From Candidatus Bathyarchaeota archaeon (GTDB lineage Archaea > Thermoproteota > Bathyarchaeia > Bathyarchaeales > Bathycorpusculaceae), in the NCBI GenBank assembly GCA_963782525.1, contig CAWAKC010000006.1, positions 1-64,000 of the forward strand: a DNA stretch of 64,000 nucleotides, written 5' to 3'. Below the pieces are notes generated by a model, which was given only the letters and a program-made list of their open reading frames with translations, was not told where the DNA came from and did not search any database. Made by a program: the position numbers and the translations under genes. Positions 17,279 to 28,299 of the stretch are shown piece by piece (position 1 is the stretch's first letter; each line of letters begins with the position of its first letter).

Positions 17279-17716
17279 TTATTCATTTAATGTTCCTTGT
17301 TTAGAGAGTCTTACAAAGTCGATGTCGCCGGTTTTATGGAATTCATCGTAGAGTTCTGTTATTCCGAATTCCGCAAATTGCGCAATTAAGTTCGCAACGT
17401 CATTGTCTGTTTTGGCATCAAACTTTGATTTTATTAGTTGTTTGAAGGGCTCGTAGTTTTTGTCCTTGCGTAAATACTCGCCTCTTATTAGTTGGGCTGA
17501 ATCTGCGGGTTTCAGTTTTTTTTCTCGAATTACACCTATTGCTGCGGCCACTAAGAATGCTTGAGCGAGACTCGAAAACGGTTTTTCAGTATTTTTTCCT
17601 GTTTTTCCTTTTCCCTCTTGCTTTTCCTCAATTTCGTGAGAGGTCTTCCTGCACATTGAAGCGAACATTCGATATGCATCTTTAGAGACACTTATTGTTG
17701 TTGGAAGTTCCGTCAT
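17279..17716 (-). CDS. pbeD: PbeD-like / dnd-associated small protein
   Basis: PFSSLAQAFLVAAAIG...AQFAEFGITEL; ATG 17716 directly after the ATPase stop; last gene of a four-gene operon. Confidence 0.6.
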   Translation of the reverse strand: MTELPTTISVSKDAYRMFASMCRKTSHEIEEKQEGKGKTGKNTEKPFSSLAQAFLVAAAIGVIREKKLKPADSAQLIRGEYLRKDKNYEPFKQLIKSKFDAKTDNDVANLIAQFAEFGITELYDEFHKTGDIDFVRLSKQGTLNE

Positions 17717-17717
17717 T

Positions 17718-25712: not shown

Positions 25713-26735
25713 TTAGACTCCTAAGGCTTTTATTTCATTGATTATTTCTTGAAATTCTCTTGAAAGCTCGTCATTTAAAAAAGGATTCTGCCGGAATCTA
25801 TCGTCAACATTAACTGGGGACGATCGCAAGTCAGTTAAGGTAGACTGTAGGTAATGTTGGTGTAATGGCTGACCTGCCCGACTCATTTGGGCAAAACTGT
25901 GAGACGTAAATGAGTTAAAATCAAAAATAAACTTAATAATTTGGTAACTTTTATCGGATTTTCGCATTGCTCTTTCATAAAAATATTTTTGGCAGCAAGA
26001 GACTACAAAACCATTGGACGAACCAAATCCAAAGACTATTTTGGGAAAAGTTGTGAGCAAAAACAATCCATAATCGGATTCAAGAAGCTGCTTAGGAGAC
26101 ATTTGGTTAAAACAATTATTGAAAGTCGTTTTAACCTCTGGATTATCTCGGAAATTATTATGCATATTTTCAAGGAGTTCGTCAATTGCTTGTTGATTCT
26201 CACCGGACCGAAAAGCCTTAAACGTGACGAAGAGACAAAATGACGACCCTTTTTGCAAATTAATAAGGTCTAGTACTGAATGGAGCGTATTAGAAAAAGG
26301 CTGGTCTGATCGAGGAAAACAGCTTCCTGAAAAATCTAAATTTACTAAATCGAATGGTGTTACTATTGTGTTGCTCTTGAACTCAGGTCGTTTTACTAAG
26401 TCCTCAAAAGTACTAAGATATCCCTTTGTTCCACCGAGTAGGGGCCTCACTTTACCAAAGTTACTGGGTAAGTTCTCGCAATAAACAACGGTTGGGAATT
26501 TTCGGCCATTGTCCTTTAGGAGACCTTCCTTTCTAAGCATAAAAATATCGATTCCATCCTTTCCGCACAATGTAAAATACCTTAATCCAAACGGTCTGGA
26601 TTTACCTCCTGCAGTAAGTTCTGTCATTTTACGTTGTGCTGACGAAAGCCAACCAAACTTTCTAACGAACTGTTTTATTGGATCTCTTGATAGGTCCAAG
26701 ACATCCATGCATCTATCGGAACTGGGGTAGCTCAC
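25713..26735 (-). CDS. Rossmann-fold methyltransferase-like protein
   Basis: LRYFTLCG..GID, VVYCE, FDLVNLDFSG pattern resembling degenerate class I MTase motifs I/II/IV. Confidence 0.5.
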   Translation of the reverse strand: MSYPSSDRCMDVLDLSRDPIKQFVRKFGWLSSAQRKMTELTAGGKSRPFGLRYFTLCGKDGIDIFMLRKEGLLKDNGRKFPTVVYCENLPSNFGKVRPLLGGTKGYLSTFEDLVKRPEFKSNTIVTPFDLVNLDFSGSCFPRSDQPFSNTLHSVLDLINLQKGSSFCLFVTFKAFRSGENQQAIDELLENMHNNFRDNPEVKTTFNNCFNQMSPKQLLESDYGLFLLTTFPKIVFGFGSSNGFVVSCCQKYFYERAMRKSDKSYQIIKFIFDFNSFTSHSFAQMSRAGQPLHQHYLQSTLTDLRSSPVNVDDRFRQNPFLNDELSREFQEIINEIKALGV

Positions 26736-28299
26736 TTAATAGATCTCCGTTGCTTCAGAAATGCATAGAACATCTTGTCTATTGCTTCTTTGTTTGCATT
26801 TTTATAAGTGCTTAACTCATGGAAAACTGAGACTTCTTGAAACCAGTTTCTTTCAGATGATTTTCTTGGCAAAATAGGACTTACATTGAATAGTGTAATC
26901 TGTGAATTTTCAAAATCAACTTTTGCTGGATATTCAAAGTATTTGTCAACCCTCTTAATCTTGAAGTTCTTTCCGTAAACTTTCGACACCAAAGAAGCAA
27001 GCGCTTCGATTTCTTCTTTTGAATAATCTTCTTTTTTATCTTCTTGGACAGCCCTCGATCTGCTTCGGGTATCGGATAATATTCCATCGTTTTCACTGCT
27101 TGCTGAAAGTCTGCTAAACATAACCTCTTGCAATTTTATATAATGGGGATCAGTTTCTCTGAAGCTATTGCGATCAATATTAAGAGCTTCCTCAAGACCC
27201 TCTTCAACGTAAATTTCTCCTGTCATTCCGGTAATAATTGGTCCAACCGACTGAGGGAAATTGAGGAAGGATTTATCATATGAACCAATTCCGACGTTAC
27301 GGATTCTAATGATTAGCCCCCTTAATTCAGGCGGAGAGATTGCATGGTTTTGGTGGTAAATATATCCTGAGAATTTGAGTCTGGATGACCCCACCATTTC
27401 GTCAAAACAAATGTCATACGTCTTCCAGTTGAAATGTTTGTCTTTAGAATCGCTTTTATAAGGGAAGAGAATGGGTTTTGAGAGCGGAATACCGTCTACA
27501 ACCACTTTAAAGTTATAACTGTTTAACCGATTTTTTACTTCCGCCATTGTCTTGCTATCGGGGATACGCCATCATTAAAATATGGAATGGGCGATATTAT
27601 TGCCAGTTCCCAAAGAAGTTTAAGATATTCTGGAATATCTTTTATCTTCTTGTCTTTAAGCCAATTAACGAATTCCTCAAAAGTTTGAGGGTCTTCCTTT
27701 TCTAGTTGAAATCCATAAACTGCTTTACTTGGGACATCAATTAACCTATTTCTGAACCCTTCATCTATTTCTTGCAATATAATCCTGGTGTAAGATTTGT
27801 TCGGTTCCTCTTTTTCCGTTTCAATAATTTCATATTCTCCAATTTGGACCCTTGAATCTCGAAGATTGAACTTGTAGGCGTCCTGTTGGTGAAAGGGTTT
27901 TAGGTCAATTTCTGCTTGAAATTGTTTATCATCTTTTTCCGTAGATGAGATAATAGTGAATTTATGGCAGATCTGTGCAACCGCCAATAACCCGATTCCT
28001 ATTTTGCCGATAAACGGCCGGTTGAATTTTGCAGTCGGGATTTCGCGTGCTCGCTTGTCCGAACCTCCGATGCGGTCCATGATTTCTTTGAACTTTTCTT
28101 TAGTCATGCCAGAACCGTAATCGGTACATGTCATAACATTAAAGTCAGGATAATCCGTTGTTATGATAGCGGATTCTGCTCCAGCATCAAAAGCATTGCT
28201 TACTAGCTCTTTTAGAGCATTGGCCGGTGTTCGGTAGATGCCCGAGCTTATGTCAGCAATGATTTTTGCTGAAACGTTAATCCTGCATTTTTCGGGTAT
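26732..28299 (-). CDS. MORC/GHKL ATPase with S5-like domain (frameshift near 27560; non-canonical start)
   Basis: In-frame extension upstream of 28134 gives IYRTPANALKELVSNAFDA (N-box), then DYGSGM and IGKIGIGLLA; C-terminal half has GEIYV...LNIDRNSF. Confidence 0.75.

Follow-up and report, generated by a model that had tools for sequence, protein, structure and literature searches.

The window analysed here, a stretch of 64,000 nucleotides (nt), is the first 64 kb of contig C6 (CAWAKC010000006.1) of a Candidatus Bathyarchaeota genome of 2.87 Mb, assembled in 12 contigs and 95.8% complete. On its minus strand lies a complete pbeABCD operon (17279-22033), in which neighbouring genes overlap or abut and, pointing away from the pbe side across a spacer of ~230 base pairs, a plus-strand pair of genes encoding a radical S-adenosylmethionine (SAM) enzyme, hereafter rSAM, and a DGQHR (DndB/ParB-Srx-like) protein (Table 1). 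The coupling to DndCDEA phosphorothioation known from the characterised Pbe system is not what we find in this genome. Judging from gene neighbourhoods in archaea and bacteria, we consider it very probable that Pbe is coupled to rSAM, with or without the DGQHR protein.

Table 1. Features of the window in order of position (aa, amino acids; ORF, open reading frame)
Feature	Coordinates	Strand	Basis
Tail-collar protein, left part of element	5687-6508		
Large terminase subunit	14068-15516	+	Terminase_6N 3.1e-14 and Terminase_6C
PbeD-like small protein, 145 aa from ATG at 17716 (longest ORF 173 aa, to 17800)	17279-17800	-	Position and homologues
PbeC, CxC-hook ABC ATPase, 673 aa	17718-19739	-	PADLOC PbeC, motifs
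PbeB, small protein, 72-aa ORF or 66 aa from later start	19726-19944	-	Pfam PF20306
PbeA, HKD (PLD) nuclease fused to SF2 helicase, 701 aa	19928-22033	-	PADLOC, TIGR04095, Pfam
92-codon stop-to-stop frame resembling N-terminal half of the 171-aa protein	22079-22357	-	Stop-to-stop listing
171-aa protein with C-terminal zinc ribbon, upstream of pbeA	22422-22937	-	Weak zinc-ribbon Pfam matches
rSAM with N-terminal B12-binding-like domain, 362 aa from M45	23168-24256	+	Motif, model
DGQHR (DndB/ParB-Srx-like) protein, 482 aa, N-terminal zinc ribbon and FFPEK motif	24253-25701	+	TIGR03187, Pfam DndB
340-aa protein, class-I methyltransferase-like fold	25713-26735	-	AF2 model, Foldseek
GHKL/MORC-like ATPase gene in two frames (28347-27538, 27547-26732)	26732-28347	-	HATPase_c_3, frame reading
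Tyrosine integrase, right island end	36014-37294	+	Phage_integrase 1.1e-19
tRNA-Pro (GGG), likely integration site	37367-37445	-	ARAGORN
Chromosomal tryptophanyl-tRNA synthetase (TrpRS)	39961-41070		83-93% identity to proteins of Bathyarchaeia, Bathyarchaeota or Nitrososphaerota archaea

PbeA, a nuclease of the phospholipase D (PLD) type fused to a superfamily 2 (SF2) helicase, matches the PADLOC PbeA profile at 1.6e-196, TIGR04095 at 2e-94 and the Pfam families ResIII (5.6e-26) and Helicase_C (2.8e-16), with a weak match to PLDc_2 (0.0013). Its motifs can be read directly from the protein (HxK in YHEKIGIF, GSxN, the Walker A motif ATGSGKT, DEVH and QRRGR) and all invariant columns of an alignment of 20 sequences (A3) are kept, including H140, K142 and N165. 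Between pbeA and pbeC, the small PbeB scores 30.2 bits with Sp-DndD (PF20306) against a cut-off of 27.2. PbeC matches the PADLOC PbeC profile at 1.9e-76 over residues 2-644, and AAA_23 and SMC_N in Pfam as well; it has a CRLC hook in the middle of the protein, a Walker A motif of the form GKNGAGKT, and reaches 160.7 bits with the DndD profile TIGR03185, under its cut-off of 245.85. A tight four-gene operon with the order and domain content of pbeABCD, as proposed from the letters alone in the initial annotation of this DNA, is therefore well founded in the profile matches of PbeA, PbeB and PbeC. Its description of PbeC as an SMC-type ATPase has to be revised: following a 2024 reappraisal in Nucleic Acids Research (PMC10853773, main text), PbeC is a CxC-type ATP-binding cassette (ABC) ATPase. 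The last gene directly follows pbeC, and its product has no match in Pfam, PADLOC or NCBIfam, the DndE family PF08870 included. Homologues in the same position of other Pbe loci (L009, 63% identity; L003, 42%) and the position itself suggest that this 145-aa protein is PbeD, the DndE-position protein; the DndEs of such systems are described in the main text of the reappraisal as highly divergent (PMC10853773).

Profile searches of the whole genome return no match to DndC (TIGR03183) or to the transglycosylase DpdA (NF041059), no PAPS_reduct domain above cut-off (best 20.2 bits), Ssp-type PAPS reductases included, no DndE (PF08870) above cut-off and no second DndD, the sole DndD-like match being PbeC itself. 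The initial annotation had reported the lack of DndC or a PAPS reductase, of a second DndD and of a Dpd transglycosylase for the island; this now extends to the genome, and to DndE. A cysteine desulfurase is likewise missing among the 36 island ORFs and frames scanned with Pfam, and no genome-wide search was aimed at it (two further ORFs of that scan lie beyond the tRNA). The DndC search works: in a sample of 401 genomes of one phylum, DndC is above cut-off in four of nine PbeA-matching genomes and within 10 kb of pbeA in three of these four. None of the four carries rSAM.

The longest ORF of the rSAM gene has 406 aa and starts at 23036, with the CxxxCxxC motif at C184/C188/C191; the true start is probably M45. 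The cluster cysteines, C140, C144 and C147 in the 362-aa numbering, are invariant in 63 of 63 sequences. In the AlphaFold2 (AF2) model, whose predicted local distance difference test score (pLDDT) is 95.4, a flavodoxin/B12-binding-like domain at the N-terminus precedes a radical SAM barrel, an arrangement shared with cobalamin-type (class B) radical SAM enzymes and with the methylthiotransferases MiaB, MtaB and RimO. The best fold match of the model in the PDB is in fact the methylthiotransferase MtaB (E 7e-10, TMq 0.60); LipA and NifB match too. Unlike the methylthiotransferases with their auxiliary-cluster cysteines, rSAM has no conserved cysteines in its N-domain, so an auxiliary cluster is unlikely and the enzyme is probably not a methylthiotransferase. 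The N-domain model also resembles AerR and a corrinoid protein (TMt 0.41-0.52), and PF02310 is above cut-off in one of six relatives (L024, 36.7 bits), weak in four others and without a match in the window rSAM. No Pfam, NCBIfam or PADLOC family describes the enzyme (NCBIfam gave weak generic matches only, PADLOC none), and a PDB sequence search with its profile gave only marginal matches around the cluster motif (E >= 0.01). The family is nevertheless large: 5905 of 8000 candidate proteins scored are relatives at E <= 1e-3, the top matches being 60-83% identical, and a profile search of representatives, one per 50%-identity cluster, retrieves 966, 3043 and 8825 of them at E <= 1e-30, 1e-10 and 1e-3. 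Species-representative genomes contain at least 455 relatives, and IMG/VR at least 460; names given to clusters in the atlas are automatic. The best loci come from Bathyarchaeia metagenome-assembled genomes.

The stop codon of rSAM and the start of the DGQHR gene overlap by 4 nt. Together with the CxxxCxxC motif and a TIGR03187 score of 92 bits (cut-off 58.85), this overlap upholds the divergent radical SAM and DGQHR operon of the initial annotation. The DGQHR protein is not an equivalog of DndB, because it stays far under the cut-off of TIGR04172 (35.8 bits against 450) and matches Pfam DndB (9.7e-15) over residues 66-207 only; the relation to DpdB is also distant (PADLOC 1.3e-10; NF041060 36.4 bits against a cut-off of 300). 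Its zinc ribbon and FFPEK motif are invariant in 19 of 19 rSAM-adjacent DGQHR proteins (alignment A4). Three loci, L011 (3618-7550), L013 and L017, have two or three DGQHR paralogues in tandem after rSAM, of which only the first has the zinc ribbon; both motifs are lacking in the second and third. When the complex of rSAM and the DGQHR protein is modelled, the interface score ipSAE reaches 0.70, 0.72 and 0.72, against 0.00 for the best of three controls, with at least 59% of contacts in common between runs and a partner pLDDT of at least 71. The mark applied to ipSAE is reached by 58 of 80 solved complexes and by 2 of 110 mismatched pairs, a calibration that is rough only, since custom alignments were used. 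The predicted interface consists of DGQHR residues 4-8 and 24-61, which is to say the zinc ribbon and the FFPEK motif, and the modelling thus supports the view that the two proteins bind each other.

The association of rSAM with Pbe recurs elsewhere. We surveyed the 80 best genome loci of rSAM (ORFs clustered, 77 rows tabulated) and found PbeA and/or PbeC within 10 kb of rSAM in 23 of them by tblastn, in archaea and bacteria, a proportion that overstates the family-wide rate, these loci being the best matches to a Pbe-linked query. Twelve of the 23 are archaeal or Ignavibacteria and have a DGQHR gene. The remaining eleven combine a distant rSAM (29-34% identity) with no DGQHR gene and belong to Methanohalophilus, Planctomycetota, Desulfobacterota, Nitrospirota, Actinobacteria and others. 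In nine bacterial loci (L066, L071, L073-L079) rSAM starts between -4 and +9 nt from the stop of PbeD on the same strand; on gene spacing, this is operonic coupling. Some bacterial Pbe-rSAM operons (L066, L073, L076, L077, L079) also have, before pbeA, a gene for a protein of 841-1308 aa with an RNA polymerase alpha-CTD-like helix-hairpin-helix and a sigma-70 region 4 helix-turn-helix. DndC is above cut-off in none of 21 genomes with rSAM-linked Pbe, genomes for which completeness is not given. Recurrence of Pbe with the radical SAM/DGQHR module in the absence of DndC is thus found; the initial annotation had counted a lack of such recurrence as a refutation. Only 7 of the 401 genomes of the phylum sample have a true Pbe (PbeA together with PbeC), and because of this low background we count the linkage seen from the rSAM side in favour of coupling.

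The picture from the Pbe side is more varied. A scan of metagenomes with the PbeA alignment yielded 80 loci, 46 of them with full-length PbeA; DndC accompanies 14 of the 46, DndA only 4, rSAM 4 and an N4/N6 methyltransferase (MTase) 3, and the other 21, many on short contigs, have none of these. Relatives of the host differ as well: directly upstream of pbeA, one from its order carries an N6_N4 MTase and one from its genus a DndA-like gene, the latter at a contig end. The rSAM-DGQHR pair thus seems to fill the slot that is held by DndCDEA or a methylase in other Pbe systems. The two modules group differently in the trees: the window rSAM falls with L003, L004, L005, L006 and L008 (support 100), and the window PbeA with L009 and L003, at a distance from the clade that holds the PbeA of L004-L008, which suggests that rSAM and Pbe modules have been shuffled between loci. 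We do not claim independent origins of the Pbe-rSAM link, as the starred branches require no more than one.

Solitary Pbe is in itself not new. In the main text of Xiong 2019 (PMC6459918), dndCD lie within 10 kb in 233 of 553 PbeAC, and of the 320 solitary PbeAC, 155 are near methylases and 165 near no modifier; a pairing of Pbe with other modifications was proposed there. The novelty that the initial annotation saw in a Pbe without dnd therefore falls away. The reappraisal treats PbeABCD as CxC ABC ATPase-DndE systems, which according to its main text occur without dnd genes and sometimes with C5 or N4 methylases (PMC10853773). What appears to be new is the rSAM partner. The main text of PMC6459918 does not contain the word 'radical', and that of PMC10853773 has 'radical SAM' twice, both times on DndC. 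Our literature search, which did not reach supplementary neighbour lists, found no paper linking radical SAM to Pbe, CxC-ABC or DGQHR: a 2026 BREX paper makes no mention of radical SAM, and the Tiamat preprint cites viperin only. ProPhylo 2011 lists the DGQHR protein only with dnd. Compared with DndCDEA-PbeABCD of Haloterrigena jeotgali, as described in the main text of PMC6459918, the window system has the same four pbe genes, order, domain content and archaeal type of host, and differs in that it has no dnd partner, in that rSAM and the DGQHR gene occupy the neighbouring position, and in that it is known from genes alone. With the CxC ABC ATPase-DndE systems it shares the CxC-hook ABC ATPase, the DndE-position protein, the HKD-SF2 protein and the small protein, as well as the published idea of a pairing with non-phosphorothioate modifications; those paired with cytosine methylases and MTaX1 differ from it in their partner, which here is rSAM with the DGQHR protein in place of a C5 or N4 methylase (PMC10853773, main text).

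Pbe is one of several partners of rSAM. A DGQHR protein is found beside it in 20 of the 77 rows, and in 18 of 18 loci with an rSAM sharing 52% identity or more with the window enzyme; a fusion of DndB with a HEPN domain (cluster c18) in 4; a GHKL ATPase in 19; a SNF2 helicase cassette with two copies of the ParB-like protein c4 in 14 (ParB_N matches 6 of 18 c4 members at E <= 0.1, every one under the gathering score); a type IIG-like methylase-nuclease cassette in 5; HerA-NurA in 2; and a DISARM-like set of DEAD helicase, MZB protein, PLD protein and DrmE_C protein in 4. None of these cassettes is present in 11 rows. The two loci in which rSAM adjoins a HerA helicase and a NurA-type nuclease, L017 and L022, are both from Bathyarchaeia. 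L016 (10001-21036) and L020 (10001-21038) have, on one strand, rSAM, DGQHR, a DrmA-like DEAD helicase of ~1094 aa, a DrmB-like MZB/DUF1998 protein and a PLD protein, and none of the genes that lie between rSAM-DGQHR and the Drm-like ones was recognised as a methylase. DISARM consists of DrmA, DrmB, DrmC and DrmE with a methylase, and the methylase would be expected where rSAM-DGQHR sits. The DrmE_C protein accompanies the DISARM-like cassette in L039 and L050. The likeness to DISARM belongs to these loci, with rSAM-DGQHR directly before the DrmA-like, DrmB-like and PLD genes; the window itself has no DISARM genes.

Several features point to DNA as the substrate of rSAM. Its partners are DNA-handling NTPase types, ParB/Srx or GHKL. 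Among ten long members of the family that were scanned, three contain the C5 DNA methylase domain PF00145: P0294 has a full methylase (194 bits) followed by the B12/rSAM module, and P0397 and P0408 have only the C-terminal part of the domain, after rSAM. The extension of a further member, P0272, is the ParB-like c4 protein (tblastn 1.5e-43). Other long forms (P0311, P0345, P0377) contain inteins (Hint/LAGLIDADG). Phages also have copies, with 18 INPHARED records. The temperate Marinitoga camini virus 1 (L092, KP836355.1 37383-38465) carries an orphan rSAM that is 46% identical, beside HerA and a NurA-like gene, and two other phage genomes have rSAM upstream of the terminase, where the early region ends. 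Of 80 IMG/VR loci with rSAM, 68 lack any queried partner, none has Pbe or DGQHR, and 13 have C5-methylase-like genes. Orphan methylases are a familiar sight in phages, but prophage-borne defence genes would look the same. An action of rSAM on DNA is thus suggested by rare fusions, by partner types and by orphan phage copies.

Next to pbeA the initial annotation had seen two small paralogous proteins. The 171-aa ORF and a frame that resembles it are indeed present, but the second is a 92-codon frame with no ATG, GTG or TTG start. L009 has the same two-gene arrangement upstream of pbeA, with a homologue of the 171-aa protein (47% identity) in the same position. PADLOC has no match for the 171-aa protein, nor for the 340-aa protein or the 271-aa C-terminal ORF of the GHKL gene further on. 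The convergent pair formed by a MORC ATPase and an MTase-like protein holds, with reservations: both genes exist, the ATPase gene is interrupted, and the MTase-like assignment consists of weak fold matches. The N-box of the GHKL ATPase lies on the frame 28347-27538 (HATPase_c_3, 57.1 bits); no ATG, GTG or TTG precedes the N-box, the first canonical start is M at 28134, and the frame shifts near an A6 run (~27540-27570) into the 271-aa ORF; no intact single-frame ATPase domain was found, and an assembly error is possible. The window GHKL protein is related to the rSAM-linked GHKL clusters c13 and c5 (BLASTP E 2.5e-12 to 3e-11). The AF2 model of the 340-aa protein (pLDDT 87.5) has Foldseek matches that, as listed, are all class-I SAM methyltransferases, including M.TaqI, and all weak (best E 1.4e-3, TM 0.23-0.49); no MTase hidden Markov model or Pfam family matches it in the profile libraries searched. 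It has 20 homologues, all with the precomputed label PF28273, and occurs in none of the 80 rSAM loci, none of the 80 Pbe-anchored loci and one of the 401 phylum-sample genomes, the host of the window itself. A homology with c49 and c47, which lie between GHKL and rSAM elsewhere, was considered and dropped (BLASTP E 0.2 and 0.17, not significant). The initial annotation had made the MORC/MTase-like pair a module of the system; given the distribution of the MTase-like protein and the interrupted GHKL gene, we regard the two genes as a module of the island in its own right, perhaps in decay and outside the recurrent unit.

The island as a whole has the features of an integrated element. The integrase abuts tRNA-Pro, with housekeeping genes beyond it, and the left part contains the terminase, the tail-collar protein and a Laminin_G_3 protein; G+C content is 34-41% over 8-36 kb, against 42-47% in most flanking windows. 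That the Pbe unit is carried by a mobile element integrated at tRNA-Pro is supported by these observations, in agreement with the initial annotation, which had placed it on an archaeal mobile element. The left end of the island runs off the contig and no att repeat of tRNA-Pro was found inside the window. Exact matches to the tRNA-Pro region occur at the ends of two other contigs (C1:616365-616387, 23 nt; C7:4-21, 18 nt) and could be the missing left att site or merely other tRNA-Pro genes. In the window and in L004, L005, L006, L009 and L011, the rSAM-DGQHR pair has a large-terminase homologue no more than a few kb away; judged by this recurrence in six Bathyarchaeia loci, the cassettes may travel in related viral or virus-derived elements. 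Adjacent to the operon, at 15800-17253, ORFs for an ABC-type ATPase (273 aa) and a GNAT-like protein (233 aa) overlap, each in its own frame; a single gene of 485-507 aa comprises both in L004 and L006, making this a second apparent frameshift of the island. The split GHKL and ATPase/GNAT genes reflect either indel errors of the assembly or gene decay. Among the other genes, one in the virus-like left portion (7842-8480) encodes a member of the 2'-5' RNA ligase superfamily (PF13563, 9.5e-16); to the right, two adjacent paralogues of 167 and 159 aa (30056-31038) match Endonuc_Holl, a family related to archaeal Holliday-junction resolvases, and adjoin a DUF6997 protein (29189-30037). A scan for sigma-70 promoters and terminators gave 28 promoter-like sites for 28.4 expected, the sigma-70 model being uninformative for an archaeon.

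How might the two modules work together? We hypothesize that the solitary PbeABCD is functionally coupled to the rSAM-DGQHR module, which is transcribed divergently from the intergenic region common to both. The zinc ribbon of the DGQHR protein would dock on rSAM, as predicted by the model, and the DGQHR protein would bring the enzyme to host DNA, where rSAM would install a covalent mark other than a phosphorothioate or an ordinary N- or C5-methyl group. Pbe would then treat unmarked incoming DNA as foreign, with rSAM-DGQHR standing where DndCDEA or a cytosine methylase stands in other Pbe systems. We infer, from the associations described above, that DNA is the substrate, the product a self-mark and Pbe its reader. 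A self tag of this kind is our best reading of the locus, and we give it about an even chance. This is not without parallel: the Dpd 7-deazaguanine system also has a DNA-modifying enzyme and a DGQHR/ParB-like protein beside helicase-nuclease genes, the modifier role being putative in our case. Dpd relies on the transglycosylase DpdA, which this genome lacks; here the catalytic partner is rSAM, and the DGQHR protein bears an additional zinc ribbon at its N-terminus.

A number of observations weigh against a DNA self tag read by Pbe. For a published Pbe system, no detectable DNA degradation is described in the main text of the reappraisal (PMC10853773). The survey of rSAM loci is biased towards Pbe, and the genomes that lack DndC may or may not be complete. 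From the Pbe side the link with rSAM is a minority arrangement (4 of 46 metagenome loci), and in the phylum sample rSAM lies beside Pbe in one of the seven true Pbe genomes, which is the genome of the window itself. The deep nodes of the PbeA tree have SH-aLRT values of 81-94 only. As to the enzyme, the window rSAM scores 26.1 bits with PF04055, under the gathering cut-off of 29.5 (one relative reaches 32.5 bits); its closest fold, at a TM of only 0.60, is an RNA-modifying methylthiotransferase, and its cobalamin domain is putative, on both profile and model. The four fused proteins that were looked up are single-member clusters at 90% identity, each from one contig, and the fusions, notably the two with a partial PF00145, are possible gene-calling artefacts. 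rSAM is also not always the sole possible modifier, because one of the cassettes that it accompanies has its own N6 methylase domain (c25), and the island contains a second candidate modifier in the 340-aa MTase-fold protein.

Alternative explanations must therefore be weighed. rSAM-DGQHR could be a defence effector or auxiliary system itself, inflicting radical damage on invader DNA or making an antiviral nucleotide analogue, working alongside Pbe and other helicase-nuclease modules or as a backup to them, with no marking of the host. A family found next to six or more kinds of cassette, and at times next to none, has the distribution of a portable defence gene; the DndB-HEPN partner c18 is effector-like, and prophages carry defence genes too, so that the viral copies fit. 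Viperins, which are radical SAM enzymes in defence contexts, act through nucleotides or nucleic acids. So does the defence radical SAM enzyme of Ophion, OpnA, which has PHP and PRTase partners and for which no B12-like domain is described in the part of the preprint available to us (bioRxiv 10.1101/2025.09.30.679545). The likeness does not go further: viperins stand alone, we detected no sequence relationship between either enzyme and the window rSAM, and the rSAM family has a B12-binding-like domain. The start/stop coupling to PbeD and the lack of DndC in every rSAM-linked Pbe genome tested are more readily explained if rSAM replaces a modifier than if it is an added effector. The C5 methylase fusions and the DGQHR partners point to modification, the latter because their relatives DndB and DpdB belong to modification operons. 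An effector role hence seems unlikely to us, if well worth bearing in mind. Peptides or proteins are the substrates of many radical SAM enzymes that have B12-like domains, and rSAM could accordingly modify or regulate a protein of the system, such as the small disordered PbeB, PbeD or a partner NTPase, or else sense the depletion of SAM caused by phages. PbeB is described as fast-evolving and proposed as a regulator in the main text of the reappraisal (PMC10853773), and small ORFs (c12, c61) accompany rSAM in other cassettes. However, no small protein is common to the different cassettes, no candidate substrate gene of this kind lies near the orphan copies in phages, and the methylase and ParB-like fusions point to DNA, which makes a protein substrate improbable.

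Two further explanations leave rSAM without a part in Pbe function. Methylation by the convergent MTase-fold protein, with GHKL, could serve Pbe, and rSAM-DGQHR would then be an unrelated neighbour. A class-I methyltransferase-like fold, predicted from weak matches, and the methylases near 155 of the 320 solitary PbeAC (PMC6459918, main text) would be in line with this; the absence of the 340-aa protein from all surveyed rSAM and Pbe loci, its restriction to one of 401 genomes, the interrupted GHKL gene and the recurrence of rSAM with Pbe are not, and we find it less probable again than a protein substrate. Finally, Pbe might be an inactive remnant left after the loss of its phosphorothioation partner, in a chance mosaic of defence genes. 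Such remnants were raised as a possibility for solitary PbeAC in the main text of Xiong 2019 (PMC6459918), and in the island the GHKL and ATPase/GNAT genes, at the least, appear to be frameshifted. The four pbe genes, rSAM and the DGQHR gene are nonetheless full length and keep their invariant catalytic residues, and Pbe and rSAM are found together repeatedly, in 12 loci that have DGQHR and 11 that lack it, so that a remnant is the least probable of these explanations and a very remote one.

The rSAM loci offer a concrete candidate partner for some of the 165 of 553 PbeAC that have no modifier nearby (PMC6459918, main text), and the compact bacterial operons, with the start of rSAM abutting the stop of PbeD, make the idea directly testable. 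Should rSAM turn out not to mark DNA, its tight linkage would still identify it as a new accessory component of Pbe and DISARM-like systems. More broadly, and more tentatively than for Pbe alone, the whole B12-domain rSAM family (966 clusters at 50% identity, E <= 1e-30), with its ParB/Srx-type or GHKL partners, could install an undescribed DNA mark that at least six classes of restriction-type machine (Pbe, DISARM-like, SNF2/ParB-like, GHKL, HerA-NurA and type IIG-like) use as a self tag and that phage orphans use to disguise their DNA; we see this as possible rather than probable. The Pbe-rSAM-DGQHR unit of the window would then exemplify a new kind of restriction-modification chemistry, built on radical SAM catalysis. 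Where rSAM is fused to C5 methylases, it may act on cytosine C5 or next to it. If rSAM does mark DNA, the Pbe loci would reveal a new epigenetic chemistry by which self is told from non-self DNA, and would explain a widespread, uncharacterised enzyme family of archaea, bacteria and phages.

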